Of a stretch of 64,000 bases of DNA, positions 6,473 to 45,400 are shown piece by piece (the stretch's first letter is position 1; each line of letters starts with the position of its first letter). The notes under the pieces were generated by a model. The model worked only from the letters and a program-made list of their open reading frames with translations. It ran no database searches and had not been told where the DNA came from. The DNA comes from a virus. The stretch lies in the UHGV virus genome UHGV-0049167, one strand, 5' to 3'. Both the position numbers and the translations under genes were made by a program.

Positions 6473-6474
6473 GT

Positions 6475-7807: not shown

Positions 7808-7809
7808 TT

Positions 7810-8010: not shown

Positions 8011-8222
8011 ACATAGAAACCGTTAATTTAGTGTTGGAAATTGTAAAGTTAAAAAATCAATTAGATGACTTGCTAAGTGTTTTTGAATTATAATACCCCT
8101 ACCAAAATTACAATTACAAATGATACCGGTATTAGCAGGTCATTTGATGTTGAAATGATAACAGAGCTGAAATCGTATGCTTATGCAAGGGATAAAGAAT
8201 TAGATAAAAAACTTGAAGAATT

Positions 8223-16247: not shown

Positions 16248-17303
16248 TTATATTAGTGGCTTTAATGATATTATCCTAGCAGATTTGCCGAATATCTTTA
16301 TCAAGACATCCTCGGGCAAGCCTGTGCTTTCCGAAATCATGCTGATTGAATACCCCAATGTGTCCGATACCAGCCTATATGCCTGCTCAAAGACGGTAGG
16401 GCTGTCAATAGGCACTTCGTAAGGTTCTTTCTTATTCCAATGACGTCTGCTGAACTCCATTCTCATAGACTTGTACTTCTCACTTGCAATGGCGTTTATG
16501 TTTTTTGCCTTTTCCAAAAGTGATGCCATGGAAACAAGCCAATACCGTTTCAGCTCAGGGAACTGTCCGAGTCTGACATTGTGCAAGGCGTTTCTGACAA
16601 CTTGGGAGGGGAGAAGGAACTCCGATGCAAAAGCGTTCGCCTCTTTCTCCTTGTCTCTAATGCTGAATACCGGGAAACTTGGGCACTCGTGCATCAGTAT
16701 GTGTCCCAGCTCATGTGCAAGCGTAAACCTTACCCTGTCGTTGCTTCTGTTCCTGTTCACGATGATAAGATGATTGCCTGCGTCAGTTATCAGGGAAACC
16801 CCGTCAAACTCGTCGTTAGGACTGTCCCACATGTAAATGAATACCCCGTTTCGCTCAAGGAATTTGCAAATATCGGATATAGGCGACATGCCGAGCCTGT
16901 ATTTGTTCCTTATGTGCCCGGCAAGTTCCTCCGGGCTTATGCCGTTGTCCATGTCGTAGTATCCAAATGAATAGTCAGGTATCTCGACAAATTCACTAAG
17001 CCAATCAAAACAATACGCAATCAGGGATATTGTCCTGTCTATCTCGTTGCGTGTCTTTACGGTTATGGTAGCCTTTTTCCTGTAATGCTTGCTGTCTACC
17101 TTGTTCACAATATTCATGTCAAGGAATTTCATCGGGAAATCAAGCGTGGACATAATCAAACCAAGCATGTTGTCAGACAGCCCGCCAAACCCCTTTTCGT
17201 ATTTTGACAGGTTGGATTGCGACAGCCCTTTGACTTTTGCCGCGAGTGCGGTTTGCGTGAATCCCCTGTATTCCCTTGCGAATGTAAGCTGCTCACATTT
17301 CAT
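16248..17303 (-). CDS. XRE-family HTH fused to ImmA/IrrE (M78) zinc metallopeptidase domain
   Basis: 351 aa; N-terminal HTH (LTFAREYRGFTQTALAAKVKGLSQSNLSKYEKG); HEXXH in FTLAHELGHILMHE. Confidence 0.7.
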   Translation of the reverse strand: MKCEQLTFAREYRGFTQTALAAKVKGLSQSNLSKYEKGFGGLSDNMLGLIMSTLDFPMKFLDMNIVNKVDSKHYRKKATITVKTRNEIDRTISLIAYCFDWLSEFVEIPDYSFGYYDMDNGISPEELAGHIRNKYRLGMSPISDICKFLERNGVFIYMWDSPNDEFDGVSLITDAGNHLIIVNRNRSNDRVRFTLAHELGHILMHECPSFPVFSIRDKEKEANAFASEFLLPSQVVRNALHNVRLGQFPELKRYWLVSMASLLEKAKNINAIASEKYKSMRMEFSRRHWNKKEPYEVPIDSPTVFEQAYRLVSDTLGYSISMISESTGLPEDVLIKIFGKSARIISLKPLI

Positions 17304-18165: not shown

Positions 18166-18759
18166 TCACACTTTCCCCAAGTACGCCATGATGCCTTCCA
18201 CGTGCAGCTCCACAATGGTTCGCTTGCCTTTCTCGCTCAGCAGATAGTCCACGTCCTCCCGGTTGTCCTGAAAAAGGTTTTCAGTCAGGACTGCGGGACA
18301 ATTTGTGTCACGGCATATTGCGAGATTCTGTGTCCAATATGGCTCATCCTGTGAGTATCTTCGGACTTTCAGTCCTTGTGTCTCTGCCGCGTCAATCAGA
18401 CGGCAGGCGAGCTCTTTGCTCTTCTTTGAAGCGTTGCGCGAGACATAAGCCGACCATCCTCTGGCGTCATGCCATTTGCCGTCGGCACCAGCCGCGTTAC
18501 AGTGTATTGAGACAAGTATCGCTTTCTTTCCTGTCGCGGCATAAATCCTGTTTGCCCTTTCGCACCGCTCTTTCAGGCTGATGTCGTTTTCCTCGGGCAC
18601 AATGCGCTGCGCGTCATATCCACGTGCCTTGAGTTCCCTTTCAAGACGCACTGCAATCTCACGGGCGTATGCGTATTCGAGCAGGCGTCCGTCAGGCGAC
18701 CGTTTCCCTGCGGTGTCCTTTCCGTGTCCCGCATCAAGTATAACTTTAAAATTTTCCAT
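18166..18759 (-). CDS. N-acetylmuramoyl-L-alanine amidase (Amidase_3 family) endolysin
   Basis: 197 aa; VILDAGHGKDTAGKRSPDG and SIHCNA motifs typical of Amidase_3; adjacent to holin-like genes. Confidence 0.8.
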   Translation of the reverse strand: MENFKVILDAGHGKDTAGKRSPDGRLLEYAYAREIAVRLERELKARGYDAQRIVPEENDISLKERCERANRIYAATGKKAILVSIHCNAAGADGKWHDARGWSAYVSRNASKKSKELACRLIDAAETQGLKVRRYSQDEPYWTQNLAICRDTNCPAVLTENLFQDNREDVDYLLSEKGKRTIVELHVEGIMAYLGKV

Positions 18760-20653: not shown

Positions 20654-21739
20654 TTATTCTGTTGTTTGTTCACTCGGTAATACATAGTCTGCGTCTATAT
20701 ACTTTCTTATAAATGCCTTTATCTGTTGCTCGTCTAATGAGCGGTCAAAGAGGTAGGCGGAGTAGAAAACTATTCTTGCACATAAACCGTTGTTGGCAAC
20801 TCTTACCTTACCGATAGTTACATCGTTTAAATTCTGGCTTTTCAAGCTACCCTTTGATATAGAAATTCCATTATAAGTCGTACTATTTACATATACAATA
20901 TTTTTTTCAACTGACGCAGGCGAATCTAATTCAGTACTTGTTCCAAATAATATTATAGCGTTATTGGGATAATCTGTAGAGTTCGGTGCTCTTTCAAAAC
21001 CTAATATGTTGAAAGACGCATTATTACTATTTTGAAGTGAAATTCCAAATGGCAGTGAGATACCTTTGTATGAATAATTAGTATATTCTCTTACCATTAT
21101 ACATGTAAGTTCGTCAATAGTTCCGACTTGAGTTACTCCGTAATCATCCACGCCGTCAAAGACAAGAGCATCGGGGTATTCGGGGAGGAGTTGAATGGCA
21201 ATATTCTTAAAATTCCCTTTAATAAATGGAGCTCTATTATAAGGACTATCCGACATTGTAGATTGAGGAACTGTATAAATTCCATCATTACGAATTTCTA
21301 TATAATTCCATCCTAAAGAACTTGAACCTAAACAATAATAAATTCGTAAGTGTTCATCGGCATTAAGTCCAATTACTTTTATTTTGTATTCATTCCAAGT
21401 CCAATAGGATGAAATCCTTTCTAAATTAAGTGTCCCTGTAAAATTTTCTATTTTAATAGAAGTTTCAGTAACTTCAAAATTATATGTGTTGTAATTAAGA
21501 TAGTTTTTACCATTTAATTTAGTTCTATATCCCCCATACCCGCTCATTTTGCTAAAAGCAAAGTTATTCAGCGTAATATCATGCCCATTACCCGTCAAAT
21601 CACGCAATACATTTCTATCAGCATCATCATTGCTCTTTCCTGCCGCCGACCATGCCGCGATAAGTCCCGGGTAATTTATGTTGCTGTCGCTCTTTTTAAG
21701 CGCGTTGGCTATCATAAGCCTGCGTCTATATATGCTCAT
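20654..21739 (-). CDS. putative tail fibre / receptor-binding protein
   Basis: 361 aa, Asn/Ser/Tyr-rich, last of a run of co-oriented tail-like genes; assignment by position only. Confidence 0.35.
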   Translation of the reverse strand: MSIYRRRLMIANALKKSDSNINYPGLIAAWSAAGKSNDDADRNVLRDLTGNGHDITLNNFAFSKMSGYGGYRTKLNGKNYLNYNTYNFEVTETSIKIENFTGTLNLERISSYWTWNEYKIKVIGLNADEHLRIYYCLGSSSLGWNYIEIRNDGIYTVPQSTMSDSPYNRAPFIKGNFKNIAIQLLPEYPDALVFDGVDDYGVTQVGTIDELTCIMVREYTNYSYKGISLPFGISLQNSNNASFNILGFERAPNSTDYPNNAIILFGTSTELDSPASVEKNIVYVNSTTYNGISISKGSLKSQNLNDVTIGKVRVANNGLCARIVFYSAYLFDRSLDEQQIKAFIRKYIDADYVLPSEQTTE

Positions 21740-23430
21740 GCCGCACCTCCCATGACTGCTATATTATTGACTATGCTCACTTGATATGTCTTGCTTGCTT
21801 CTATGGTGCTGTCGCCTATCCACTTTACGTCATCGGGCAGCGACAATGTGGTCGGAGTCGCACCGCTTGTGAACTCGAACATGTATTCCTCCCGTATATC
21901 CGTGTCTCCGCTGGCGAATGTAAGTGTGAGGCTTGTCACCTCTCCGAACACATAGAGTATGCCCGGCTTCAGTTCCTGTGTCACCTCGCTGCCCTCAACC
22001 TCCACACGTCCGCGCATATCGTCAATTTCCTTTTTTGTGTAATATCCCGAAAGGTCTGTTGCCGGATAGAACCCACGGCTCATACTCAGACCGTCATCAT
22101 GACCTTCGGTGCACCAATATGCCATCTTGTCCTGTACCGAGTAGAACAGGCGGTTATGATAGCCTGTGTCGTACGCATCAGGGCTATCCCAAAAGCCTGT
22201 TCTATTCCACTCCGAATAAAGCTTCCCTGTCTCTGATTTGTAAGCATAGAAAGCATATCCGGCAGAAGTGCCTGTGAATTCAGCGCAAACACCGTCGAAA
22301 TCATCTCCCGCGTTCTCTCCGTGGGCAATCTCATGTGACAGCTTCGTTGAAATCCATAGCAGCGGAAGCACATGCCTTCTGTTCAAATCACGTACGGGCA
22401 TCGTCCCTCCGCCTCCGAGCAGTATGTCCTCATCGCTCTTGCCCTTGTATGCAAATGTCTTGCTCCATTCGGGAATAGAATCTGGATAGTCATTGCCCAA
22501 GGAAAGACTGACGCGCTTTTTGATATATTGAGGCTGGTCTCCATTAAAATCAACCATCCCCCTGCAGAAGGAAATTGTATAATGATTGTGATGGTCAATT
22601 GCATGCTGGTCAAGAAAATCTATAAACAGATGTTCCCTTGGGTCAATCTGTCCATAAAGCCGATGCACTCCGGAAAGAACTCTTATGTCGCTTACGTCAA
22701 ATCTGTAGTCTCCAGCATAAGGTAAATCTCCAAAAATTACATTATCCCCGTAACTTTCATCTTTGTTGTATGCCAATCTCGGTAGATATAAGGCATAGTT
22801 TTCTTTTAGACATTCTTCTGCTGTGGCAGGATATGATAAGTCAGTGCTCTTTAATGCAATTCCTATCATGCCATCGTATCCACGAAGCCAAACCGGATGA
22901 CCCTTGACAAGTATCTTCTTTTTCAAGGCATCGGTGTCTCGCATATCAATCACCTCATGCCCTCCACCCGTAATAAGAGCCGCCCATTCCTCTTCCGAGC
23001 CTTCATACCCGTGCAGCACGGCTATCTCATAGGCGGACAGACCGTTGCCCGGCACACTGATGTCCATGTCAAGCTCGATGTTCACGGTGCCGGTCTCCAC
23101 ACCCTCGTCGCTGCTTATTGACACAAGCTCGAAGGCGCATGCCTCATCCACGGTGTTGCGGTTGTTGTCGCCCCAATCCTCGGTAAGTGTCACCGTATAC
23201 GCGCCTGTCCACTGCTGCTGTGTGCCCGTCCATCCTGCTATCAGCTCCTCTCCTGACTGTACTACAGGAAGGCTCACGCTGCCGAGAATGTTGCGCAGCA
23301 TAAGACCTATTTTCTTTCCCTCGAGGTTCTCTGCACCGCCACGGCGTGTAAGCCTTATGCGCAGAATGATGTCGTTTCCTATTCTTATACGTCTCATGGT
23401 CTGTCTCCTTTCTTTACTGTTCCGGCTCAC
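21736..23430 (-). CDS. putative tail/baseplate protein
   Basis: 564 aa, ATGA overlap with downstream gene; contains an HEIAH (HExxH-like) motif of uncertain meaning. Confidence 0.4.
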   Translation of the reverse strand: MSRNSKERRQTMRRIRIGNDIILRIRLTRRGGAENLEGKKIGLMLRNILGSVSLPVVQSGEELIAGWTGTQQQWTGAYTVTLTEDWGDNNRNTVDEACAFELVSISSDEGVETGTVNIELDMDISVPGNGLSAYEIAVLHGYEGSEEEWAALITGGGHEVIDMRDTDALKKKILVKGHPVWLRGYDGMIGIALKSTDLSYPATAEECLKENYALYLPRLAYNKDESYGDNVIFGDLPYAGDYRFDVSDIRVLSGVHRLYGQIDPREHLFIDFLDQHAIDHHNHYTISFCRGMVDFNGDQPQYIKKRVSLSLGNDYPDSIPEWSKTFAYKGKSDEDILLGGGGTMPVRDLNRRHVLPLLWISTKLSHEIAHGENAGDDFDGVCAEFTGTSAGYAFYAYKSETGKLYSEWNRTGFWDSPDAYDTGYHNRLFYSVQDKMAYWCTEGHDDGLSMSRGFYPATDLSGYYTKKEIDDMRGRVEVEGSEVTQELKPGILYVFGEVTSLTLTFASGDTDIREEYMFEFTSGATPTTLSLPDDVKWIGDSTIEASKTYQVSIVNNIAVMGGAA

Positions 23431-24823
23431 CGTAGCCGTTTATATCTGTGTCTGCCTCTATATATGCTCTGAAACCGTTCGCTTCCTGCGGTTCCTGAAG
23501 ATGATACACAAGACCTCCTGTTCCAAGCGTGTATGCTCCGGCAGGCACTGTTGTTTTGCAGTAGAATCCCTTCATTGTGACCCCATTATATGTCACCGGC
23601 AGCGGTTCCGTCTCCCATTGTGAGACATTGGCTATGATATACTCGGAAGCGGGACTGTCACCGCCCGGTTTAAAAAGATACGGCTTGCCAGCCTCAATTG
23701 ATGTGACTTTGGTAAAGTGCAAGGTTTTCCCTTCTATTGAAGTATATTCCGAAACCTCCGTCCCTTCACCGAATACGCCCGCTATGTCCGTCACGTTGAA
23801 CGGCAGGCACAAAGAGTGCCAGACACCCGCACCGAACGTCCTTTTAAGCGTAACGGACACTGTCAGCCCGAGCTTTGCGCAGCTCTCTATCACGGTCTGA
23901 TTATAATGTCCGTCAGACGACTGGTCAAGAGTGACGGCAGAGAGTGGGGTGGAGGAGGCTGTCAGTCCGGCAATGTTCTCCGGAGGATATGTGAAATACC
24001 ATCGGAAACCTTTCATCGTGTTCACGCTCACGTTTGAATGGTACAGCTGTCCCGAGCTGAACAGATAGCATCCCTCGGGCAGAGCGTATATCTTGCCGTA
24101 TGAAGGATGGAACTTAAGTGAGCCGTAAGCAGGCTCAGGCGCGGCAGACACGACAGAGTCTATGTCCTCGAACACATACACACTGTCTGATGGCGGGTCA
24201 GCTGTCGGGACGACGACATAGCATTGTCCGGCATCCATGCCGTCCGTCACTTCGGTAAGCCGCAGGTTCGGGTCGTCTGTCAGACCTCCGTATGCGTAAA
24301 CTTTTGTCCCCTCACCGAACGCAGCCGCAATCTGTGCGGTGCTTAAAGAGAACGGCAGTACGAACGTGTTGTAGATGTCCTTCTTGACACCGCTTCGTTT
24401 TACCTTTACCGTCAGTCCGGTGCCTTCCACCGCGTTTACGGGTGTCTCGGACTCCTCGTCAAGAATCAGCTCGGATGTGCTGTCACGCACGCACGCCTTA
24501 TCCGGCAGGCTCTCGCATTCAAGGCGCATCCGCAGCCCTTTGTCAATTTCCAGCATATGGAGCATGACGCTTCCTTCGCGCCTCTCGTATCTCGACCAAG
24601 TATGCGTCACGGTCATTCCCATGCCCGGCAGTCCCGCATACAGTGTGATACCGCTTTCCGGCTCACCGTCTATCTGTAATATTCCCTCACCGCCATGTGT
24701 CCATTCCGCATGCCACATTCCTCCGGTTTTGGAAAAGTTCAATGTTGTCAATGTCATATACTGTCCTCCTGTTTTTTTATCATAAATATATGTTTCCGTT
24801 CGTGTCCGTGTCATCATCGTCAA
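23414..24823 (-). CDS. putative tail protein
   Basis: 469 aa, immediately downstream of the giant fibre gene. Confidence 0.4.
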   Translation of the reverse strand: MTMMTRTRTETYIYDKKTGGQYMTLTTLNFSKTGGMWHAEWTHGGEGILQIDGEPESGITLYAGLPGMGMTVTHTWSRYERREGSVMLHMLEIDKGLRMRLECESLPDKACVRDSTSELILDEESETPVNAVEGTGLTVKVKRSGVKKDIYNTFVLPFSLSTAQIAAAFGEGTKVYAYGGLTDDPNLRLTEVTDGMDAGQCYVVVPTADPPSDSVYVFEDIDSVVSAAPEPAYGSLKFHPSYGKIYALPEGCYLFSSGQLYHSNVSVNTMKGFRWYFTYPPENIAGLTASSTPLSAVTLDQSSDGHYNQTVIESCAKLGLTVSVTLKRTFGAGVWHSLCLPFNVTDIAGVFGEGTEVSEYTSIEGKTLHFTKVTSIEAGKPYLFKPGGDSPASEYIIANVSQWETEPLPVTYNGVTMKGFYCKTTVPAGAYTLGTGGLVYHLQEPQEANGFRAYIEADTDINGYGEPEQ

Positions 24824-27800
24824 TGCGATTAATCTGTATCATCTGCACCCTGTCATAATTCATGTATACGGCTGTTGTCGTTATCATGCTGCCGTAGTAT
24901 ACGGTGCCGCTTCCCGGTTGTACGATTCCGATGTTCGAGAATCTGTATACATTGCGCGAGCACCATTGTCTGGAGAAATCCACCTTTTCCGCATAGTCAT
25001 CCTCATATCGCGTATAGTCCATTGGCGGTGTGTCCATAGGCGAGCCTATCATGAACGATTCCGGATTGTCCTGCGCCCACATTCCTGTGACAGCCTGTGC
25101 CGTGGTCACATTACCCTGCTCCATGAACCATCTGCCGTTCGCGGCTCTTGCAATCTCCGGAGTGGAGGCGTAGTCACCGCTGAGATATGTGTCGTTTACG
25201 CGCCCTGCAAGATACATGTACAAAGGTGTTTTCGTGTACACATGACCATATTGGAATATGGTGTTCATTATCTGTTTGTTGCCAACGATGTCGCCTACGG
25301 TGGAGAATGTGGCCCCTGTCAGCTGCAGGCGTCCGTATTTGCTGCTGGTCTCCCACCGTTCTTCCGAGACATCCTTGCCGGACAGTCCCCACGGTCCGAG
25401 GTCATAAAGGAACGTACCGTCATTGTCATAATAGGACAGTACCATGTATGAGCCGTTATATCCCATTTTGATGTTGGTCACACCGTTAGGGTTCTTTACC
25501 TCAATCAGTCCTCCCTTTATCTCCACATGCCCCTGTCCTTCGTCCATCGTGCGGAGCATCACACCTGTAAGGGTGCCCGCCTCGTCGATTGTGGTGACTG
25601 TCTCGCCGGAGTTGTTCTGTATCTCGAAGTTGTCGGCAGTGACCTTTATGCGCTTGTGTTCAATGTCTATCCCTGTCGCCTGCAGCTCGTCGCGCGTGAT
25701 TGTCTCCGAACGCCAGTCGGTCGCCTCGCTGCCTTTCTCCAGCTTCACTCCGCATATCCAGACCTCTCCCTGTGCAGAACTGTCCGGCATGAGCCGTGCC
25801 GCTATCAGGCTCTTCCCTCCGCTTACGTCATTGCGAGTGCTCCATGTCACCTGATAACGGTTCCATCCGCTTTCAAGCGTGAACTGCACGAATCCGTCTG
25901 TCACACCTGTCTGGTTCTTCGTCCCCGGACTTGTGACCCAGTCGGTGCAGTTCGGATAGAAGTACGAGCCGATGCTGCCTGTGCCGCGCGCCCAGAATGA
26001 GAGCGTATACTGTACGCCCGGCTCGGGCACCACGTTGCGCCATGTGATGACGTCCTTGTATGATGTCCCGGCTTCGTTCACACCGTGTGCCACGCTTATT
26101 TTTTCTCCGTAAGGTGTCGTGTATGCTCCTGCCTCTACGGTATCCTGTACGGTGCATTGGCTGAAGTCCGATGTTCCTGGAAGAAGATTCGGTCTTTTAA
26201 GCCTGTCCTCCGCGCTGAGTCCCCAGTCTGTCGCGTCCGCACCTGTCTCTATCTTGGGACGCGACACGGACGAGTATCCTGATGATATGCCCTGTATATA
26301 CAGGTTACACTGCTCTACCGACGCCACAGCCTTGTCCTGTATCCTGTGTGTGGAGCTTATGCGTCCCTCGAACGTGTCCGTGGATGTTATCTGCCTCCAT
26401 GTCCCGAGATACTGCGTACTGCCGTCGGCATACCGTATCATGGGCTCCATGCCGATACGTCTGTTGCCTGATGCTGCCGGAACCGCAGATACGGTCTTGA
26501 CAAGACATGATACGGTTATTGTCTTTCCGCGCAGGCTTGACACATCCCCGATTGTGTAGACCTTGTTCCCGTTCCCTGTCAGGAATATGTCAGGAGTGGT
26601 CACCATGTTTCCGTCCTTTGCCCCAAGATAGCCGACTTTAAGGCTTATGCTGTCCGTCTCAGCCTTAATCTGCGATGAGAGTGCCATGGACGATACAGTG
26701 AAGGACAGGCGGCAGCTCACACTGCGGGTCTCCCCGCCCAGCGTTGCCTGTGCCGTAATCTGTACCCATCCCGCTCCGTATGGCACCGAACCTCCCCAGT
26801 CTGCCGTATATGTCCCTATTGCGGTTATTGTAACCTGTGCCCCGTTGCGTGACGCAAGACAGTGCATAGGCTCTATGGCGGTAATTGTGACAGTCATCTC
26901 GCGCGTGCCGAGCCATGCGCGCAGACGTGATGTCGCATCCTGCATGCTCACCACACCGTCACTGTCAGCCTCCAATGTTATGGCGGCAGGGTCAAGTGCC
27001 CATGAGAAGCCGTCCTGCCCGTCCGTGCCGGGTTCACCGTCACTTCCGTCCGCTCCGTCCTCACCGCGTATCCGTGTCCACTTATATGAGGTAACGCTTG
27101 TCGGGTCATATGAGTTGAAGTCTACGCATTGCCCGAGCCACGCGCCCGGTGTCTCACCGTTGTTTGCTGTGAACGTCTTTCCCCCGTCGTCGGAATATTT
27201 GATGTGAAGGTAGCTTGTCTTTCCGTCCGTACCGTTGGTTCCCGGTATTCCCTGCTCCCCATCATACCCTTGGAAGCGTGACCACGTGTAGTCCGAAGGG
27301 TCGTCGCTGTCTGCCTCCGTGAAGTCAACGTATGTGCCGATGTAGAGGTTGGGAACTTCTGACATTGGAGTCCCGTTGGAGTTTGCCGAGTATTTAACAT
27401 GGAAATATGTCGTACGACCGTCCTCTCCTGCGGGTCCCGGAACGCCCTGCTCCCCCTTGTCTCCTTTTTCTCCGGTATCACCCTTTATCTTTGACCATTT
27501 ATAATCGGACGGTGTTCCGCTGTCTGTAGGATTCGTGTCTGTAAGGACTCCAATCCAGTCACCGCTGTCCTCTCCGTTGTTTCCGGTAAAGGTGACGCCT
27601 CCGTCGTTAGAGTATTTGATATGGAGATAATATGTCGTGCCGTCAGTCCCATTCACGCCCGGCAAGCCCTGTTCTCCCTGTATGCCTTCAAATCTTGACC
27701 AAGTGTAGTCAGATGCATCAGTACTGTCTGTTTCTGTAAAATCGACGTAAGTACCTATGTATTTGTCAGGCGTCTCGGTCATGGGCGTACCGCTCGCGTT

Positions 27801-30800
27801 CGCAGAATACTTTATGTGGAAGTAGCTTGTACGTCCGTCCGCACCGGGTGTTCCGGGTATGCCTTGCTCGCCTTGCGGTCCTTGTAATCCTTGAAGCCCC
27901 TGCTCGCCTCTATCACCTTTGTCTCCTTTGTCGCCCTTTATCTTCAACCAAGTGTATTCTGACGAGTCTGTGCTGTCGTCAGCGTTGGTGTCTGTCATGA
28001 CGCCAATCCACGCGCCCGGTGTCTCACCGTTGTTTGCTGTGAACGTCTTTCCCCCATCATCGGAGTATTTGATGTGAAGATAATATGTAAGCCCGTCCAC
28101 ACCGTTGGTTCCCGGTATTCCCTGCTCCCCATCATACCCTTGGAAGCGTGACCACGTGTAGTCCGAAGGGTCGTCGCTGTCTGCCTCCGTGAAGTCAACG
28201 TATGTGCCGATGTAGAGGTTGGGTGTCTCGGTCATGGGATTTCCGTTCTCGTTTGAAGAATATTTCACATGGAAGTATGTGGTCTTTCCGTCATGACCGG
28301 GTGCCCCGTCTTTACCGGCTACACCGGGAATACCCTGCTCTCCTTGCGGACCCTGCGGTCCCTGTATGTTTCCGGCATTCACCCACTTGTCACCGTCCCA
28401 CACCCATAAGTCTCCGTCTATGAGCCATGCGTCACCGACCGCGTTGCCGTCCTGCGGGAGTTCGGAAGAGTCATTCTTCGAACCTTTCAGATTGAATGAA
28501 GTCCCGTCCTCTCCACGGAATTTGCTCCATGTATAGTCGGAAGGATTGTCGCTTTCCTGTGCGCTCTCTTTGTTTACGGCTATGCCTATATATTTTGTCG
28601 TGTCTGAAGGGGTCTGATACATAGGCTCACCGTCCGGACTGTCAGAGTAGGCAATCCATGTATAGAGAGTCTCACCGTCCTCGCCCTTTGCTCCCGGCAC
28701 TCCGTCCTCGCCTTTTATCTCTGACCAGGTATAGTCCGATGGATTGTCGCTTTCCTGTGCGGTATTCTTGTTATATGCGAATCCAATGTATTTCTTTCCG
28801 GAAGGGTCGTTGGATATGCCTCCTCCTTCAGCGGTGTCGGAATATCTTATCCATGTGTAAAGTGTCTTCCCGTCCTCACCGGACGGTCCTGGTACACCCT
28901 GTGGTCCCATGTCACCTTTCTCACCCTGCTGTCCGTCCATACCTCTGAAACGTGCCCATGTATAATCAGAGGGGACATCGCTCGCTGTAGGGTTAAAATC
29001 CACGCGTGTACCGATAAATACATCCGGAGTCTCACTCATGGGCACACCGTCAGGATTCGGTGAATATCTTATGTGAAAATATGTGGTTTTCCCGTCTGCT
29101 CCGTCTTCTCCAGCCGGACCCTGTATTTTTCCTGCGTTTGCCCATGCGCTGCCGTCCCATACCCACAGATAGCCGTTCACGAGATACGCGTCTCCTGTGC
29201 TGTTCCCTGTTGGCGGCAGCATGCTCTCGTCATCAACGCTTCCCTTCACAGTGAATGACGTGCCGTCCTTTCCGTCAGTACCTTTAATCCTTGACCATGC
29301 ATAGTCGCTGTAGACGAGAGCCACGTCGCTCTCCGTGCGGTCTGTGCATATGCCGAGCATGAGCCAGTCTTTTGCCGTGCTCTGGGATTTGTCCTTTGTC
29401 CAGTCGTCCGGACCGTTTCCCCATGCAAGGTGCGTGTAGCTGACAAGACCGGAAGTGTCCACATCCAGCTCGCCTCTTATCTTATTGCCGTTAGCCGCGA
29501 ACCATGTCGTGCGGTACTGGCTTAGAGAAAAACTTGTGATTCCGTTGTATTGCGCGAATGACGGACTCTCCAGCTCGGTATCCGGAGTGGAGTGGGCGGC
29601 TATTATTATCGCATGGCTGCGCGCTGTGTCGTCACCACGGTGTCCGCACAGACAAACGCTGTCACCCTCTGCAGGCTCAAGGCTGTCAGCCGCGCACGTG
29701 GCTTCAGACACTTCAATCCAATGGCACTTTCTGTCCTCACCGTCAATGTTCCGTGTTCCGCTCCCTGTTGCCGTGACAAGTCTCCACCATAGTCTGTTTC
29801 CTGCATCATATGATGTCCCCTCGGCAAGATTGGATGTCATTGCCAGAGCCTGGTCTCCGACCTTCCACATGTTCTGCACGGCTCTGCCGTCGCTGTCCTC
29901 CGCCAGCCACCACAGACGCCATGCTCCGCTTATTCTTTCGACAGAGCGTACCGTGCAGTTAGCAGCGGACAGTATCAGTTGACCTCCGACGCTGTTCAGC
30001 TCATCTATGACAAGCTCGAAGAAATGTGCCCTTCCTGTCACGGTCAGCGTTTTCATTGTGGCTTCGTCGGCAAGAAGTTTCTTCAGCCGTGCGGTACCGT
30101 CCGCATCTATGCCGTAGTCTCCGTCTCCCACAAGCAGCCCTTTGAGGAATGTTATAATATCCAAGGCTGTGTCCGGACTGTCTTTCCGCAGAAAATACTT
30201 CGCGCATTGTGCTAAAATGTCACCACGCATGCCATAAGTCAGGGATGTAAGTATCTCTGTTTTTATGGAATCGAGCTGTGCTCTGAATGAGGATTGAGAC
30301 ACGGTCAGGGTGTCTGTTAAATCCACACTTATTTCATAAAGTATGCTATCATCGGCTTTACAAGTATAGTTGCTGACATACAGAAGATGCTCTTCTTGAT
30401 TATATCTTACTGTCAGACGTGTATTTTCATTCAGCAATGAGGTGAAGTCCTCATTTAATGCCAGATATACACGGGAAAATTTTATTGAATATGTGAATTT
30501 CTCATCATTATTCCCTTTCATGTAAGCAATAAGAGCCGCATCCAGTCTTTTTTCCGCTTCCCGTATGTAGGATTCAGGAAGAGAAATGCCAGTTATGACA
30601 AATGTATCGCCTATTGACGGACGATATCCTTGTGCCGCGTTCGGCATAATGACACCAAAGGTATCTGTTTCTTTTTTTACGGCTATCCATACTTCATATT
30701 CGCTGGTGTCCTGCTGGCGTGAAACGTAACTGTTTGTATCACGTGAAGGCAGGATATAGTCTCCTTCATATTTGTCCGCATTAGAACTGTTGACCTTGCG

Positions 30801-32942
30801 AAGATTGCCTTGTGCGTCTGTCATGACAGGGTTATAGAATTTGTATCTGTCACCATCGGCATACTTGTCCACCCCGATAACGAAACGGCATGCGGCGCAG
30901 TTGCCGCTTGTCATCTCTATTGCAGCCTCTTCGCTTTCTAATGCATGCTCAAAAATATTGAAGCCTCCACTTCCGTTATATACATGTAGTTTTATATAGA
31001 AATATGAATGAAGGTATTCGTCACTATTGTCTTTAAGGACATCGCTATCATCCGTATCAAACCGTATGTCAGCTATTTCACCTATCAACTGACCTTGAAT
31101 GTTTTTTATCCCTTTTATTGTCGGGACTATATCTTCAAATGAAGTCGTCCCTTCGTGAGGGTTCAATTCATTGTATACATTATTAAATATATATTTATTT
31201 CCTGATTCATCTTCATCTTCATATGTATTATTGACTGCATTATAGTAGCGTTCCGCTCCTCCACTTTCTCTGTATATAGAGGGCATCAGGCTCTGAGAGG
31301 GAGTTATCCACTCTCTTCCTGTAATATTAATTATGGCTGGTGTGTGGTCACCGCTGTCCTCCACAACATTCCATTCACCGCCTGAGAAATCCAAATGCGA
31401 AGGCGCATACGGAACATTGTTTACATCAGACAGCGTTATTCCGCTTTTACTGTATGCGATGTTATTCCCATCTCCATATGAGAAATAATACAGTTCTCCG
31501 CCACTTTTCTGATATGTTATGGATGATTTTGCATTTAACGTCATTCCTATAGTCGCCTGGCTGTTGGTCGCTCCGCTTCCTGAGAAAATGGCGTAAGCAG
31601 TCCCTTTAATCACAACTTGAAACCATCCGCTGGCATGGAAGGTATATTCATAGTCCTTCCAACCTGACAATATTTCTATTTTATCACTTATAGAATCATC
31701 CTCATTCGGATTATAGTCGTCTCTCCATATTCCAATACTTATTGTATTTTTAAGGTTTCTGTCCCCTCCGTAGCTATTTGACGATACTTTCTGCCATGAA
31801 AGTGATAAATCTGCGTCACCGCTGATTTTTCTGAAAGTCAAAAAGGATTCATTGAAAACAAACCGAAGTTTGTCTCCCTCTTGTGCATTTATTTTCAGTC
31901 TGAAAGATATCGTGATATAGGTGTTGCCTATACCTGTTCCAAAATAGAATATGTCTGTAGCCTCCCTGTTGCTTATTACTGTGGGGCTATATGCATTATA
32001 AAAAGGAGCAGTCTGTCCGATGTCTGCGCTGGCATCCGTGTTTGACACCTTTTTAAGTCTATATGCGGTATATGGGGAACTGTTGTATTTTAGTATCTCA
32101 TTTAAGGAGATATCTGCTACTTCAGATTTGTCAATGTTCTCTGTGTCGAAACTCGCGTTGCCCTCCGCACTCATGTTTGGATAGTACCATGGCAAATTTT
32201 TTGTGCCTCCAGTACCGGTTATCCTCGTGATAATCCTGTAATTGGCATTTGTTTTCTGAATAGACAACAGAGCATTGTCATTACCATATTCTATCGGAGT
32301 TGTTATTACATTCTCTGTATATCCTACGTGGCAGGTCTTCCCTGTCCAATAATAGGCGAGTCCATATACATTATATATATCCTGTAGAGCCTCTGCAATG
32401 AACTTGTCTTCTATACTGACATCTTTGCCCTCAGAAGTTATGCCTTCGTCAATGACAATATGGAAACCTTCTTGTTTGTCTTTATTATATAGACCGCTGT
32501 AAATCAATGAATCGTTGAGCCGGGCAACAAACTCGTGTACATCACCGAAGAAATGTACTTTAGATGTGTTGCTTCTGTATCGGTCTTTATATTGGGCTTC
32601 AGTATCTTCTGTTACCACATCAAGGAAATACACGTTTTCAAGTATCTCCCTTTCACTTACAAATGTGACCTCATGTTTGTATGTTATCTCAGAATTGTCT
32701 TTGGATGATGACGGCTTTTGCCTTATATAATACTTCTCTCCGCCAAATTCTATATACTCGTTTAATGTCCATTCATTGTCAAGACATCTTGGGAATTTCA
32801 ATGTAGCCGTGAAGGTCGGTGCGCCGCCCATGCGTTGTGCGTCATAGGTGTATGTACCTATGACCGCTTTTTCTGTAGACGAAGGAAAATATTCTTTCAC
32901 TCCGTTTGTGTCACGCATTATGTATAAGCTCTTCTTCTCCAT
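24780..32942 (-). CDS. giant tail-fibre-like protein with collagen-like Gly-X-Y tracts and tandem repeated modules
   Basis: single 2720-aa ORF; repeated modules of the form GKTTYFH(I/V)KYS...DPSDYTWSRF...G-X-Y triplets...TYYLHIKYSDDGGKTFTANNGETPGAW; DNA-level direct repeat about 870 bp apart. Confidence 0.7.
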   Translation of the reverse strand: MEKKSLYIMRDTNGVKEYFPSSTEKAVIGTYTYDAQRMGGAPTFTATLKFPRCLDNEWTLNEYIEFGGEKYYIRQKPSSSKDNSEITYKHEVTFVSEREILENVYFLDVVTEDTEAQYKDRYRSNTSKVHFFGDVHEFVARLNDSLIYSGLYNKDKQEGFHIVIDEGITSEGKDVSIEDKFIAEALQDIYNVYGLAYYWTGKTCHVGYTENVITTPIEYGNDNALLSIQKTNANYRIITRITGTGGTKNLPWYYPNMSAEGNASFDTENIDKSEVADISLNEILKYNSSPYTAYRLKKVSNTDASADIGQTAPFYNAYSPTVISNREATDIFYFGTGIGNTYITISFRLKINAQEGDKLRFVFNESFLTFRKISGDADLSLSWQKVSSNSYGGDRNLKNTISIGIWRDDYNPNEDDSISDKIEILSGWKDYEYTFHASGWFQVVIKGTAYAIFSGSGATNSQATIGMTLNAKSSITYQKSGGELYYFSYGDGNNIAYSKSGITLSDVNNVPYAPSHLDFSGGEWNVVEDSGDHTPAIINITGREWITPSQSLMPSIYRESGGAERYYNAVNNTYEDEDESGNKYIFNNVYNELNPHEGTTSFEDIVPTIKGIKNIQGQLIGEIADIRFDTDDSDVLKDNSDEYLHSYFYIKLHVYNGSGGFNIFEHALESEEAAIEMTSGNCAACRFVIGVDKYADGDRYKFYNPVMTDAQGNLRKVNSSNADKYEGDYILPSRDTNSYVSRQQDTSEYEVWIAVKKETDTFGVIMPNAAQGYRPSIGDTFVITGISLPESYIREAEKRLDAALIAYMKGNNDEKFTYSIKFSRVYLALNEDFTSLLNENTRLTVRYNQEEHLLYVSNYTCKADDSILYEISVDLTDTLTVSQSSFRAQLDSIKTEILTSLTYGMRGDILAQCAKYFLRKDSPDTALDIITFLKGLLVGDGDYGIDADGTARLKKLLADEATMKTLTVTGRAHFFELVIDELNSVGGQLILSAANCTVRSVERISGAWRLWWLAEDSDGRAVQNMWKVGDQALAMTSNLAEGTSYDAGNRLWWRLVTATGSGTRNIDGEDRKCHWIEVSEATCAADSLEPAEGDSVCLCGHRGDDTARSHAIIIAAHSTPDTELESPSFAQYNGITSFSLSQYRTTWFAANGNKIRGELDVDTSGLVSYTHLAWGNGPDDWTKDKSQSTAKDWLMLGICTDRTESDVALVYSDYAWSRIKGTDGKDGTSFTVKGSVDDESMLPPTGNSTGDAYLVNGYLWVWDGSAWANAGKIQGPAGEDGADGKTTYFHIRYSPNPDGVPMSETPDVFIGTRVDFNPTASDVPSDYTWARFRGMDGQQGEKGDMGPQGVPGPSGEDGKTLYTWIRYSDTAEGGGISNDPSGKKYIGFAYNKNTAQESDNPSDYTWSEIKGEDGVPGAKGEDGETLYTWIAYSDSPDGEPMYQTPSDTTKYIGIAVNKESAQESDNPSDYTWSKFRGEDGTSFNLKGSKNDSSELPQDGNAVGDAWLIDGDLWVWDGDKWVNAGNIQGPQGPQGEQGIPGVAGKDGAPGHDGKTTYFHVKYSSNENGNPMTETPNLYIGTYVDFTEADSDDPSDYTWSRFQGYDGEQGIPGTNGVDGLTYYLHIKYSDDGGKTFTANNGETPGAWIGVMTDTNADDSTDSSEYTWLKIKGDKGDKGDRGEQGLQGLQGPQGEQGIPGTPGADGRTSYFHIKYSANASGTPMTETPDKYIGTYVDFTETDSTDASDYTWSRFEGIQGEQGLPGVNGTDGTTYYLHIKYSNDGGVTFTGNNGEDSGDWIGVLTDTNPTDSGTPSDYKWSKIKGDTGEKGDKGEQGVPGPAGEDGRTTYFHVKYSANSNGTPMSEVPNLYIGTYVDFTEADSDDPSDYTWSRFQGYDGEQGIPGTNGTDGKTSYLHIKYSDDGGKTFTANNGETPGAWLGQCVDFNSYDPTSVTSYKWTRIRGEDGADGSDGEPGTDGQDGFSWALDPAAITLEADSDGVVSMQDATSRLRAWLGTREMTVTITAIEPMHCLASRNGAQVTITAIGTYTADWGGSVPYGAGWVQITAQATLGGETRSVSCRLSFTVSSMALSSQIKAETDSISLKVGYLGAKDGNMVTTPDIFLTGNGNKVYTIGDVSSLRGKTITVSCLVKTVSAVPAASGNRRIGMEPMIRYADGSTQYLGTWRQITSTDTFEGRISSTHRIQDKAVASVEQCNLYIQGISSGYSSVSRPKIETGADATDWGLSAEDRLKRPNLLPGTSDFSQCTVQDTVEAGAYTTPYGEKISVAHGVNEAGTSYKDVITWRNVVPEPGVQYTLSFWARGTGSIGSYFYPNCTDWVTSPGTKNQTGVTDGFVQFTLESGWNRYQVTWSTRNDVSGGKSLIAARLMPDSSAQGEVWICGVKLEKGSEATDWRSETITRDELQATGIDIEHKRIKVTADNFEIQNNSGETVTTIDEAGTLTGVMLRTMDEGQGHVEIKGGLIEVKNPNGVTNIKMGYNGSYMVLSYYDNDGTFLYDLGPWGLSGKDVSEERWETSSKYGRLQLTGATFSTVGDIVGNKQIMNTIFQYGHVYTKTPLYMYLAGRVNDTYLSGDYASTPEIARAANGRWFMEQGNVTTAQAVTGMWAQDNPESFMIGSPMDTPPMDYTRYEDDYAEKVDFSRQWCSRNVYRFSNIGIVQPGSGTVYYGSMITTTAVYMNYDRVQMIQINRIDDDDTDTNGNIYL
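27138..28230 (-). repeat. two direct-repeat copies (about 220 bp each, about 870 bp apart) inside the giant gene; coordinates approximate
   Basis: near-identical DNA starting CCACGCGCCCGGTGTCTCACCGTTGTTTGCTGTGAACGTCTTTCCCCC at about 27138 and 28008, and again ACCGTTGGTTCCCGGTATTCCCTGCTCCCCATCATACCC... in both copies. Confidence 0.6.
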
Positions 32943-34426
32943 CAGGCTACATTGTTTATAGGTGCATTTTTGTTTGTGCCATCCGTAGTCTTGTTCCGTT
33001 TTGACTCTTCAGCCAATCTCATTTCCTCATCAGGAGTGGAAACGGTATTTTTTTCAATTCCCGTCTTAGTGGAAATGATACCGGATCCTTTCAGAGTGCA
33101 AAGCATCTGGTTATAAGTATTCTCATCGAACGGCTGCCACATTTTAAACTTGCAGGATATTTTCATTCTGGCAAATTCTGTTACCGCATTCGGATTCTCA
33201 CCTTTATTTACAAGTTCTTTAGCCAGTCCTTCCTTGAAAAGTCTCGCATGTTTATCCGCAAAATTCTGCCATTCTATTACGTTTTGAGCCGCACCTTCTA
33301 TATCGAAAGAACGTGTTATTTGCATTGCCAGACCGGAGATGTCCCCGCTTGACTTAACATCCTTGGGAAGGATGAATGTTACGGATGCTCCTATCTGAAT
33401 CTTGTCAAGAATGTCTTGCATCGCATTAAGCATTCCTTCATTTGTAGGTGGAGAGAGGAACTTTGCGTCTCCCTTGCCGTCAATCGATGCGTCTTGAAGC
33501 ATAATTGAACCTGCTATTTGACGGGCGTCTTCCTTAAAACGCCCTTTGAGATATAAAATCCCCCATCCATGACGCTTTTCTATTACAGTAAAGATGTTGT
33601 AAATAATCTCAAATGTTTCTATCAGATTCTGGACGTTGTTCCATGCGACATCACCGCGCTTTGTTATAAGCGGTATCTCACTGAAGCCGTGAGCCTCTTG
33701 GCTCTCTATATGCCAACCGTCAACGTTCGTCAGACGGTACAGGTTCGTGTCGTCGTATGCGTCTATGTGCTGCACGTTGTCACCGTCGGCATAATATACA
33801 CATTCCATCACCCGGTCACCGTTGTCGTCGTTGTGTGATATGATGACATATCCGTCCTCGTATGATATTATCCGCCCCCTGATTTCACCTTTATAGTTGA
33901 AATACATCAGAAGTCCGATGTCGCCAAGTCCCATCTGCCCGTATACAGCCTTTGTCCCCAATCCGTCCTGATTGCGCTCTGTCCAATGCCATTTCAGGTC
34001 AGCAAAGTTTTTTTTCAATGTTTCGGAAGGATTGCTGTCATGCAATGTAAATACTCTGGGATTGCCGCATAATGCAAGTGTCTTTTTTTGTCTTATTCTT
34101 TCTTGAAAGGCAAGAGCGGTACGCTTGAACTTTATTTCATAGAATGCTCCGTCATTGGCTTTGACACAAATTGACGGCATATTTTCGTCAAAAAGTACCT
34201 CATGGCTGTCCGGGTCAAGTTCTTTCATGAACTTGTCCTGTGTGACAATGGTCTTCATTACGTTTGGAAGCACAGCCCGACGTAAGGCGGACACATTCTC
34301 TTCCGCCCCACAGTTGTTGTCGTACACGGAATATGTACTGCTGCCTCTTGTAAACGGCTTCTTCATCAGCATTTCTTCCGGATGAGACAACAGCCATTCT
34401 ACAATTTCCTTACGTGTTCTGTTCAT
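32942..34426 (-). CDS. hypothetical structural protein (portal candidate)
   Basis: 494 aa, ATGA-coupled to upstream gene, two genes downstream of TerL; no diagnostic motif read. Confidence 0.3.
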   Translation of the reverse strand: MNRTRKEIVEWLLSHPEEMLMKKPFTRGSSTYSVYDNNCGAEENVSALRRAVLPNVMKTIVTQDKFMKELDPDSHEVLFDENMPSICVKANDGAFYEIKFKRTALAFQERIRQKKTLALCGNPRVFTLHDSNPSETLKKNFADLKWHWTERNQDGLGTKAVYGQMGLGDIGLLMYFNYKGEIRGRIISYEDGYVIISHNDDNGDRVMECVYYADGDNVQHIDAYDDTNLYRLTNVDGWHIESQEAHGFSEIPLITKRGDVAWNNVQNLIETFEIIYNIFTVIEKRHGWGILYLKGRFKEDARQIAGSIMLQDASIDGKGDAKFLSPPTNEGMLNAMQDILDKIQIGASVTFILPKDVKSSGDISGLAMQITRSFDIEGAAQNVIEWQNFADKHARLFKEGLAKELVNKGENPNAVTEFARMKISCKFKMWQPFDENTYNQMLCTLKGSGIISTKTGIEKNTVSTPDEEMRLAEESKRNKTTDGTNKNAPINNVA

Positions 34427-34959
34427 ACTGCGCTTCCTTTGTCTTTAAGTCCGTAATACTTCATGCACGCTTCTTTTGTCGGCATATAGGTACACTCTCT
34501 GTTGGTGTGTGGACATATAATGTCATGTTTCTGAGGCACGACTATTATGCGTTTTTGCGTCTGGCTGGCTTCCATCTCAAACTTATCGTTTAGTTTCACG
34601 CGGATGTCTGCCTCCATTTTCACAGCGTCCTTCGCGTCAATCTTCTTACTTTCGGCAAGAACCTTTATCTCTTTCAGCAAACGTATAAGTTCCGTCTTGT
34701 TCTGCTCACGTGTTATAAGTTCTTCGTTTACCGAGCCTATGCCGAAAGGTTCAAGCAAATCCCGTAATTTTATCATCCTCGGAGCACGATAGTGTGCTTC
34801 AGCATCCGTTGCAGTCCTGCCGTACGCCATTTTGTACGCCACAGATTTATCGGCGAACGTATCGCACAGCACAGCAAAGGCTATGTCTTTATCACTCACT
34901 GTAGCCCACTCCTGCCGTGCGCTTTTGAGTATAACCTTTATGTCGTCTTTCTTTATCAT
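34423..34959 (-). CDS. hypothetical protein
   Basis: 178 aa between TerL and portal candidate. Confidence 0.4.
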   Translation of the reverse strand: MIKKDDIKVILKSARQEWATVSDKDIAFAVLCDTFADKSVAYKMAYGRTATDAEAHYRAPRMIKLRDLLEPFGIGSVNEELITREQNKTELIRLLKEIKVLAESKKIDAKDAVKMEADIRVKLNDKFEMEASQTQKRIIVVPQKHDIICPHTNRECTYMPTKEACMKYYGLKDKGSAV

Positions 34960-42473: not shown

Positions 42474-45400
42474 ATGAGCGGAGAAATTGGAAGCGCACTT
42501 GTAATACCTGAAAGCGTACTTGACTCATTTAAAGATGCTGATGAATGGTTGGCAAAATTACAAAAGAGGATTTATGATACCGGTGATATTTCCGGAAGGT
42601 CTTTTGGTAAAATGGTAAATGGGACAACCCGTTTTTCCTCGGTGCTTGACGCTGTCATACAAAAGCTGAAGGAAGTGGAGAAATCGTCGGTAAACGCCTC
42701 TACGGCATTTAATGCCATGAGCGGGGCAAAATTCGGGAATGCGGCAACGCAGGCGGAGAAGCTGAACACAAGTATAGTGAGAGCAGCGGAAAACATAGAG
42801 AGGCTCACATCTGCTACAAGAGACAGACAAGGCGATTCCGGACTGAAGAACATCAGTGTTACATTAGATGCTCTATGGAAAAAATTAAAAGATACCCGCG
42901 TAGAGCTGGAGCTGTATTGGAAGTATATATCTACAGGTAAAAAGGACAATGTCGAATTTGGGCAAAAGGGACTTAATGAAGCATCCAAGACTGCTGATGC
43001 GCTTATGCGACAAATCACTGCTCTTGACGCTGCCTATAAACAGCTACGGAGGAGTTCAGCCAACGTAAATGACATGAAAGGGCAGACGCTCGCGGACATG
43101 CGACAGTCTGACATTTTGAGGAAAATGTCAGAATATTACCGTGATATGGAACGGTCGTCTGCTGCTGCGGCAAAAGAAGCCGAGAAGAGAGCCAGGTCGG
43201 AGGAAAAAGCGGCAAAAGCCCAATCTAAAATATACCAGCAACAGAACTATGCCCGTAATACCACATATGCGGGAGCGTTAAGCTTTGCTGAGGACGCAAA
43301 TACGATAAACCGACGTACCCAAGCCATTAAATACTTGCAGGAGGCTCGCGCAGCACTGTCTGCCACAGACAGTGAGTATGCATCCAAGCTTCGTACCCTT
43401 AATGACCGTATCAAGCAGTTGAATGCCGCAAATAACGAGGCTATAGCGGGAAGCAAAAACCTTGTGAACGAGCATCGTCGTCTGTTCGATATAACCGGGC
43501 AGCTGTCACGGTCGTTTGCGCTCCTGTTTTCAGTGTCGCAGATACGTGGATATATTGCAAATGTCGCTACGGTACGTGGGGAGTTCGAGATGTCACAACG
43601 CTCACTTGAAGCGATACTGCAAAACAAGACACAGGCTGACGAAATTTTTGCCAAGACGGTTGAACTTGCCGTTAAATCGCCTTTTCGCATAAAGGACTTG
43701 GTTCAGTATACACGGCAGCTTGCCGCCTACCGTATAGAATCAGACAAACTGTTTGATACCACCAAACGCCTTGCTGATGTCTCTGCAGGTCTTGGCGTGG
43801 ATATGCAGAGACTTATTCTTGCTTACGGACAGGTAAAGGCTGCCGCATATCTGCGCGGTTCGGAAGTACGCCAGTTCACGGAGGCAGGTGTGAATATGTA
43901 CGGGGAACTGCAACGTTATTTTCAGGAGGTCAAAGGTGAGGCATATACCACAGCGCAAATTGTTGACATGATAAGCAAGCGCATGGTGACGTTCCAAGAC
44001 GTGGAAGCTGTCTTTGAGAGAATGACAAGTGACGGAGGCATCTTCTTCAACATGCAGGAGATACAGGCTGAAACCTTGCAGGGCAAGATAAGCAATTTCC
44101 AGGACTCTCTTGATGTCATGTTAAATTCCATAGGCAAGGCAAACGAAGGTCTCTTGAAGGGTGCGATAGATGGAGCGACGGCATTGCTTGAACATTGGGA
44201 GGAACTTGTGGACGTCGGCAAGGCACTTGCAGCCATACTTCTTACAATCAAAGCACGTTCAATGTTCCTGAACTCGACGTTGGGAATCGCTTTTACACAA
44301 GCAGACACAAAAGGTCTCGCGCGTTACAAAGCCTTGTTTGTCAACGCTTTCACCAGCATGGGAAATGCTGTAAAATCTTTTGGGACAATCGCAAAAACAT
44401 CTCTTGTCGGACTCGGAATTTTTGCTGCCATCGAATTGATAACAACCGCAATAGGTAAATGGAGCGATTATAATAAAAAAGTCAAGGAGGCGCAGGAAGA
44501 TACCATAAAGACAAGAGAAGAAATAAGGAAAATATCAAGTGCTTATAATGACCTCGCGGATACGGCAACAACCGCTGACACAAAGGATTTGCAGAAAAAC
44601 ATTGACAAACGTAGGATTGCCCTGCAAAGGCTCATTGACAGCGCGGCGAAAGACGGTCTGGTATTAAAGATAAACGTGGAGGAGGTAAAAGATGAGGATT
44701 TAAACAAGACGTTTGACAGTGTAGAGAAGAAATATAAGGATTTCGTTGATGAACTGGAGATAATCAGGCGGAACTATGCCGAGAGTAACAGAAAATTGGT
44801 CTTTGATGGAATTGACGATGACCGTGAAGATTACAAAAACGCTGTTCTTGACTTTCTTTCACAATCGTCCAAAATAGAAACAGCCGTTGCTATAGTGAAT
44901 GCCAATTATGACAAGGCAACGGCAGCCACAAAGAAATATTTTGACGAGATAAGGGCAGGGCAGAAAGCCGGCGAATCGAACCTTGATTATATGCGGCGAA
45001 TGGCAGCAGCCTTGCAGCAAATGAATGTGCATTTAGGAGGAAATATTTATGCAACTCCAGGATGGCTGGACGGAGTGGAGGGGATGGTAGACATTGTGGA
45101 CACCTACAATTCTGTAGAGAAAGCCGGGGCTGCGTTGGAGAAAGAGTACGAGAAAGTGTTCGGGGACTTGCGTGATAAATACAAAAACGACCCGATTAAG
45201 ATAAAAGCCGCTATTGATAAGGTCGCAGCTGAAGAGGATTGGAGCCAATATGACCGGGAGTTGGCTTACAGACATTTTGGAATCAATGTCAAGATAAACA
45301 AGGACACTATGGAGCAGGAGGTATCGTGGGTTGATGACTACCTCTCGAATTTCTTTGCCAAGAAAAAGTACGGAGTCAGCCTTGTTGTAAAGGAAGTCAC

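Follow-up and report, generated by a model that had tools for sequence, protein, structure and literature searches.

What kind of virion component is encoded by a single phage gene of more than 8 kb, how is it built, and does its length vary? These questions are raised by the largest gene in a 64,000-nucleotide (nt) stretch of the virus genome UHGV-0049167 (the window), which a preliminary description had read as encoding a giant tail-fibre-like protein of collagen-like triplets and duplicated modules. The gene is, as that description held, one uninterrupted 8.2-kb open reading frame (ORF): 8163 nt on the minus strand, encoding 2720 amino acids (aa) followed by a stop codon. Weighing its predicted fold, its repeat anatomy and its relatives, we consider it very likely that its product combines two parts of a Bacteroidales phage tail in one chain: the tail-tip hub (Tal, gp27-like) and, fused to it, a very long central tail fibre.

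24780..32942, minus strand: whole ORF with its translation, very likely a Tal-type hub fused to a central tail fibre

Predicted hub, module array and distal domains

The predicted fold of the N-terminal ~900 aa is that of a baseplate hub or Tal of the gp27/gp44-like kind, with structural likenesses that include the Bxb1 hub gp25, T5 pb3 and VgrG proteins. An alignment of homologues shows two conserved stretches, aa 1-265 and 550-940, separated by a variable one at aa 266-549. On this model, the N-terminal region is a gp27-like hub decorated with an insertion, in three parts:

32148..32942, minus strand: conserved N-terminal part of the predicted hub domain (aa 1-265)
31296..32147, minus strand: variable beta-rich insertion predicted to decorate the hub (aa 266-549), unconserved in the alignment, modelled as all-beta and without a Pfam or PHROG match
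30201..31295, minus strand: conserved second part of the predicted hub region (aa 550-914), with many invariant columns and homologues in the Bacteroides phage C3_41T2LP and the Parabacteroides phage PF672P1

PF672P1 has a homologue of 1597 aa. More than 670 proteins share the first 1150 aa, making up a large family. Lengths range from 952 to 2004 aa among the 120 members listed, and names, where given at all, are "tail protein [Caudoviricetes]" or hypothetical Prevotella proteins. Family members come mostly from contigs of phages of Prevotella and other Bacteroidales, the groups to which most relatives in genome bins also belong, and the host is probably a member of the Bacteroidales, most plausibly Prevotella. 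Reading the N-terminal region as a hub would give a functional assignment to this large, so far unannotated family, which lacks a Pfam or PHROG match in that region.

Further along the protein lies an array in which small globular modules alternate with Gly-X-Y runs. The preliminary description had recognized this alternation, and the peptides it quoted are present in the translation; the array is, however, not the whole C-terminal half, but occupies aa 1168-1980, or ~30% of the protein.

27003..29441, minus strand: ten small beta modules, two Trp-rich modules and ten Gly-X-Y runs (72 triplets; aa 1168-1980), with matches to Pfam Collagen and PF21470 and a profile match to PDB 5e7t_B

The ten Gly-X-Y runs, of 4-12 triplets each, fall between aa 1275 and 1980, against ~0.3 such runs expected in a shuffled protein, and the Pfam Collagen family (PF01391) matches with 64.9 bits (cut-off 27.2; E 5.5e-18). 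Each run follows one of ten globular modules of 47-53 aa, which are 28-89% identical in pairs and share the consensus xYxHIKYS...YIG..VD......SDYTWSRF. Two further modules of 48 aa are Trp-rich (GTSF.hKGS...GDAWLhDG.LWVWDG..W.NAG.IQ). The globular modules match PF21470, the BppU-like_C or Tuc2009 BppA junction module (50.5 bits; cut-off 27), and a profile of all ten finds Tuc2009 BppA in the PDB (5e7t_B; E 4.5e-5). Unlike in BppA, all ten are contiguous, with no carbohydrate-binding module (CBM) inserted after the first strand. We delimited the modules by motif and by hand, as BLASTP of the protein against itself was uninformative. Tandem Repeats Finder returned trivial 9-nt periods only, as it cannot pick up modules so diverged and so far apart.

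Searched alone, the array gave only a marginal match in the PDB, to 80alpha FibU within the collagen stretch. By tblastn, the array matched 431 phage records, whose annotations read antireceptor, host specificity or tail fibre; 289 of them are from Streptococcus phages. These records include S. thermophilus antireceptors, the host-interaction protein of Lactobacillus phage J-1, the pneumococcal MM1 antireceptor and PblB-like proteins, as well as tail fibres of crAss-like phages and fibres of Ruminococcus gnavus phages.

Between the array and the C-terminus, we distinguish four domains:

26553..27002, minus strand: beta-rich linker domain, fold not recognised (aa 1981-2130), with no family matches and a low-confidence model
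26205..26537, minus strand: first jelly-roll-like domain (aa 2136-2246), ending ...PKIETGADATDW, with matches to phrog_19846, phrog_5502 and phrog_33450 (tail fiber)
25698..26189, minus strand: CBM4/9/16/22-like jelly roll (aa 2252-2415), ending ...KLEKGSEATDW, with matches to phrog_5983 (tail protein) and, by Foldseek, to CBM4 and CBM16
24780..25697, minus strand: distal tip domain, fold not recognised (aa 2416-2720), opening with TADNFEIQNNSGE, a motif common to proteins P0121-P0132

Both jelly-roll domains end in a common motif, ...K.E.G..ATDW. Foldseek with aa 2261-2410 returned CBM16, CBM4 and CBM4-2 structures (E ~1e-4, template-modelling score ~0.5) from a model with a local predicted local distance difference test (pLDDT) score of only 60-79; this likeness agrees with a sub-threshold Pfam match to CBM_4_9 and with the tail-protein PHROGs. 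A PDB sequence search with the C-terminus gave no match, and the last 300 aa have only 12 homologues found, all distant. Foldseek matches to CDTb and iota-toxin were rejected as alignments of low-confidence regions (root-mean-square deviation >20 Å), and the Pfam hits P22_Tail-4, Tla3_N and TcA_TcB_BD in N- and C-terminal segments as sub-threshold noise.

These parts suggest how the protein might work. Because hubs are trimeric, we infer that the collagen-like runs form triple helices. Three N-terminal regions of ~900 aa each would close the end of the tail tube, and the three C-terminal chains would run jointly along the tail axis as an axial fibre. In it, the small three-stranded beta modules, of the PF21470, BppA-junction type, would nucleate ten short collagen-type triple helices and hold these in register, giving ~60 nm of helix in total (~62 nm when calculated from 72 triplets). 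At the end of the fibre, the two CBM-like jelly rolls and the 300-aa tip domain would bind a host surface polysaccharide.

Several points weigh against a fusion of hub and central fibre. Neither Pfam nor PHROG gives a hub-family match for aa 1-740, and a PDB sequence search with the first 740 aa gives no match, even with a 46-sequence profile, so that the hub assignment derives from the predicted fold. The gene stands after the portal gene, on the strand opposite to the tape measure, rather than directly downstream of a tape measure and Dit; no Dit was identified among the neighbouring ORFs, and no Dit or hub follows the tape measure. Towards the C-terminus, the CBM_4_9 match to the second jelly roll scores 20.2 bits, below the cut-off of 25.9, and the shorter runs, with 4-6 triplets each, offer little length for a triple helix to be stable by itself. 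The AlphaFold2 model of aa 1821-2720, built on a 15-row alignment, has a pLDDT of 38 and is usable only for the modules and one jelly roll; predicting the structure of both ends, a check proposed in the preliminary description, thus yielded a hub fold at the N-terminus and a poor model at the C-terminus. Counting for a hub-fibre fusion is the phage structural setting, with terminase, portal, capsid, a 1915-aa tape measure and endolysin genes nearby.

An exchangeable distal fibre

The composition of the gene changes within its coding sequence. The fraction of G and C (GC) is ~0.38-0.43 before position 30200 in reading direction (30200-34500) and 0.48-0.60 from 30200 down to ~22000, a step from ~0.40 to ~0.54, and the high-GC block spans the distal 1800 aa and the next two ORFs. 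A change this sharp within one ORF suggests that a fibre cassette was gained by horizontal transfer. It falls at a short motif that we term the joint motif:

30132..30200, minus strand: joint motif YFLRKDSPDTALDIITFLKGLL (aa 915-937), coinciding with the GC step and a mosaic breakpoint
29442..30131, minus strand: proximal fibre domain, fold not recognised (aa 938-1167), with matches to phrog_17422 and phrog_38044 and homologues in C3_41T2LP, PF672P1 and proteins P0126-P0130

Three contigs from other samples (L020, L021 and L022) locate the breakpoint. Their 97.8% nucleotide identity to the window begins at gene nt 2770, that is, at aa 924; protein homology extends from ~aa 748, and before that they carry a different N-terminus of ~370 aa. 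On L022, the genes for a 1506-aa tape measure and a small tail protein immediately precede that of the protein with the distal fibre (98% nucleotide identity), placing it at the canonical position of a Tal gene. In other phages, the joint motif forms the N-terminus of the stand-alone fibre proteins P0126-P0130. Since the onset of identity, the joint motif and the GC step coincide, and since the same motif starts stand-alone fibres, the distal fibre from ~aa 924 is an exchangeable cassette that moves between phage lineages. The module array behaves as part of it: among the 120 best N-terminal homologues, just 11 have a Gly-X-Y run and only the near-identical P0002 has more than two modules, so the module expansion belongs to the distal cassette.

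The stand-alone fibres also speak for a different placement of the protein. P0126-P0130 are separate genes for proteins of 905-1206 aa that start at the FLRKD...ITFLKG motif, and the giant gene does not adjoin the tape-measure gene; on these grounds, the protein might be placed laterally, as a side tail fibre, or might be a receptor-binding protein that stands alone and is attached to the baseplate by an adaptor domain, rather than a hub. We regard this as unlikely given the hub/Tal fold predicted for the N-terminal ~900 aa. For the same reason, the preliminary description of a tail-fibre-like host-recognition protein holds in spirit but is imprecise. A simple fusion or fission with the lineage of P0127 was rejected, as the 892-aa protein upstream of the stand-alone fibre P0127, a candidate split-off homologue of the hub, shows no similarity to it.

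Composition also accounts for the out-of-frame ORFs within the gene, which had been put down to the repeats. Five of the seven ORFs of at least 100 aa that lie wholly inside the gene span are outside the array, and the other two overlap its 3' end. As those five fall in the high-GC stretches flanking the array, they appear to be a by-product of composition.

Two of the three contigs that share the distal fibre are very long (L020, 121.5 kb; L021, 276 kb), with ~10 kb of each available; they may be prophages in bacterial chromosomes or much larger phage genomes. On L021, the codon for aa 2440 of the giant protein is changed from GAG to TAG, which cuts the fibre before its last 280-aa tip domain; the codon stays GAG in L020 and in the window. 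Either an error in sequencing or a natural split or truncation could account for this change.

Repeats and length variants

The preliminary description had placed a DNA repeat at about 27138 and 28008, some 870 bp apart, and it lies exactly there: 28008-28283 and 27138-27413 are 88.8% identical over 276 nt (blastn E 6e-95), at a spacing of 870 nt or 290 codons. Modules of 290 aa, as had been proposed, do not exist; counted in nucleotides, the figure corresponds to the repeat length and, counted in codons, to the distance between the two copies, and the true units are the modules of 47-53 aa. The 276-nt repeat links the first and third of three copies of a two-module A-B superunit, ~145 aa long:

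27936..28361, minus strand: A-B superunit copy 1 (aa 1528-1669)
27483..27935, minus strand: A-B superunit copy 2 (aa 1670-1820)
27066..27482, minus strand: A-B superunit copy 3 (aa 1821-1959)
28101..28223, strand not applicable: 123-nt exact repeat, copy 1 (partner 27231-27353)
27231..27353, strand not applicable: 123-nt exact repeat, copy 2 (partner 28101-28223)

The superunits are 139-151 aa long, and copy 2 is ~65-71% identical to the other two at the DNA level. Outside the 123-nt exact tract, the two repeat copies differ at 31 of 153 positions, so that "near-identical" overstated their likeness, and in the related contigs L020 and L021 the exact tract measures just 51 nt. An exact tract amid diverged flanks, and its shortness in two relatives, point to an old, diverged triplication of the ~145-aa superunit, in which the 123-nt identical stretch looks like a later gene-conversion patch, and not to the recent in-frame duplication first suggested.

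Diversity-generating retroelements are common in Bacteroides phage fibres. The array repeats are the sole long repeats in the window, in which we found no template/variable repeat pair and no direct or inverted repeats of at least 50 nt outside the array, although reverse transcriptase was not searched for. Lacking such a pair, this mechanism was rejected as the source of variability.

Relatives of the gene show that the array varies in length by whole modules. The short-form alleles L004, L005 and L023, three independent assemblies, all lack one block:

28284..29267, minus strand: block of 984 nt (aa 1226-1553) absent from L004, L005 and L023

L005 lacks a further 870 nt through recombination between superunits 1 and 3, and L003 lacks 489 nt, in relatives that are otherwise 96-99% identical. 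These findings support in-phase recombination between the repeats, by which whole modules are gained or lost. Comparing module number in related phages, a check proposed at the outset, thus revealed whole-module in-frame differences, and supports the view, put forward there, of the array as a substrate for recombinational length variation.

A technical origin of these patterns needs to be weighed: assembly might have created the long ORF or its number of repeats, and repeats collapsed from short reads might explain why relatives differ in length. The window does contain a 123-nt exact repeat, and L003, L004 and L005 are all frameshifted; L004 has a 42-nt duplicated join typical of scaffolding, so that at least one of these frameshifts looks like a scaffolding artefact, a caveat on the smaller length events. 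Against this, L020, L021 and L022 align without gaps to gene nt 2770-8163, or to the limit of the locus, at 97.7-98.5% identity and with an amino-acid divergence of only ~1%. Because these three independent contigs reproduce the distal 5.4 kb without gaps, the ten-module array is no assembly artefact, and for the window a collapsed or chimeric ORF is refuted. The junction of the 984-nt deletion is identical in all three short-form alleles and has a microhomology of only 10 nt, too short for k-mer collapse. Finally, every length difference (984, 870 and 489 nt) is a multiple of 3 and in register. We therefore consider a technical origin very unlikely. Separately, in L005 (IMGVR_UViG_3300045988_136180), whose gene is otherwise 99% identical, a 14-nt deletion at gene nt ~2522-2537 puts the hub region out of frame, indicating either a defective phage or an assembly error.

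With a hub-fibre fusion as the preferred reading, one could go further, and we do so tentatively, as the following is more doubtful than probable. Fibre length might be a standing, selectable polymorphism, with ten-module long forms and seven- or three-module short forms co-occurring in gut populations at fixed in-phase junctions and matching how far the fibre reaches to the host capsule, its thickness or its phase-variable type, while the distal cassette hops between unrelated hubs at the conserved joint motif. The locus offers concrete examples, open to test, of how module number varies and how fibre cassettes are exchanged at a defined joint; these are of use in host-range prediction and in engineering phages against Prevotella and Bacteroides.

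Neighbouring genes and known systems

The structural genes of the window (16248-48221) form two divergent operons, terminase/portal/hub-fibre/endolysin on the minus strand and capsid to tape measure on the plus strand. The minus-strand order is large terminase, a 178-aa ORF, portal, the giant gene, ORFs of 469, 564, 361, 218 and 229 aa, and endolysin (18166-18759, minus strand) at the end of the operon. The divergent plus-strand operon encodes the capsid protein, small connector-sized ORFs and the 1915-aa tape measure (42474-48221, plus strand). Translational coupling to the portal gene, whose stop codon at 32942 overlaps the giant start codon, and a terminase-portal-giant gene order conserved in L003, L004 and C3_41T2LP, might be taken to indicate a protein of the head or one associated with the portal, such as a minor head, decoration or ejection protein, but the predicted hub fold of the N-terminal region, the mostly tail, antireceptor and host specificity annotations of the array's matches, and a collagen, PF21470 and CBM content typical of adhesion devices leave this scarcely credible.

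No sheath-sized ORF was found in the plus-strand capsid-to-tape-measure operon, which suggests a non-contractile tail, and the phage is likely long-tailed; at ~0.15 nm per residue, we estimate from the tape measure a tail of roughly 290 nm. The 469-aa ORF downstream of the giant gene (23414-24823, minus strand) has no Pfam or PHROG match, and its translation seems internally duplicated (...LPF....FGEGT.V..Y...). A 1.2-kb segment of it, 23434-24655, adjoining the giant gene, is absent in the close relatives L003 and L005, and its product could be an extra adhesin or a moron. The following 564-aa ORF (21736-23430, minus strand) has conserved ends, a middle (~21888-22984) that is replaced in L005, and a weak tail-fibre PHROG match; it may encode a second, variable receptor-binding protein. 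A 351-aa protein (16248-17303, minus strand) with PHROG matches to phrog_2439 (transcriptional regulator) and phrog_87 (metallo-protease) may be a repressor-type regulator. The window contains no tRNA genes.

Megablast of the giant gene against 50,697 phage records gave no match. The literature searched yielded nothing on C3_41T2LP or on collagen-like fibres of Bacteroides phages. C3_41T2LP (OR296439) is a cultured relative with the same unusual layout, in which a terminase-portal-...-giant tail protein operon diverges from a capsid...tape-measure operon. Its 2498-aa tail protein (WLZ21171.1) shares homology with the giant protein in two stretches, aa 58-262 and 551-1139, with 27% identity; it differs in having no BLASTP similarity past aa 1139, where it carries a different distal region without the array, and three small genes separate the portal and tail-protein genes.

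In lambda gpJ and T5 pb3/pb4, too, a hub protein extends into a central fibre (PMC7291167). Unlike the giant protein, these have fibronectin-like and other beta domains and protein receptors, and no collagen runs or PF21470 modules. Gly-X-Y triple-helix segments in phage fibres have counterparts in the collagen-like tail-fibre proteins of E. coli O157:H7 prophages (PMC3368898) and in the pneumococcal MM1 antireceptor/PblB; MM1 and IPP phages match 96-99% of the array at ~38% identity. These proteins have other flanking trimerisation domains and are not fused to a Bacteroidales-type hub. The small beta module is known from BppA of Lactococcus phage Tuc2009, in which an N-terminal segment (residues 3-29) and a junction segment (186-229) pack together around an inserted CBM (PMC4742702). 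Our 47-aa module aligns to residues 6-18 and 199-230 of 5E7T chain B (YLHTAY... / KFVGTYVDTN...YDWDEMK), within these packed segments. In BppA, the module occurs once and is split by the 156-residue CBM, whereas the giant protein has it unsplit, ten times, with Gly-X-Y runs between.

The same overall architecture has been published for the Tals of S. thermophilus phages (PMC7533335). Tal is the tail-associated lysin or antireceptor of cos and pac siphophages, such as DT1 ORF18 and STP1 ORF15 (PMC7533335; Duplessis and Moineau 2001 as cited in PMC5601072). These proteins have a gp27-like N-terminal hub, which in pac group B is decorated with insertions to ~800 aa, and lengths that vary between phages up to 2020 aa (PMC7533335), compared to 2720 aa here. 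The giant protein differs in its probable Gram-negative Bacteroidales host, in carrying PF21470 modules ten times without an inserted CBM, in following the portal gene rather than tape measure and Dit, and in a hub without detectable sequence similarity to theirs. We conclude that it is a large but ordinary example of a known design, which leaves the understanding of phage adsorption unchanged, and that gut Bacteroidales phages, too, use the fibre of collagen and BppA modules known from dairy and pneumococcal phages of Gram-positive hosts.
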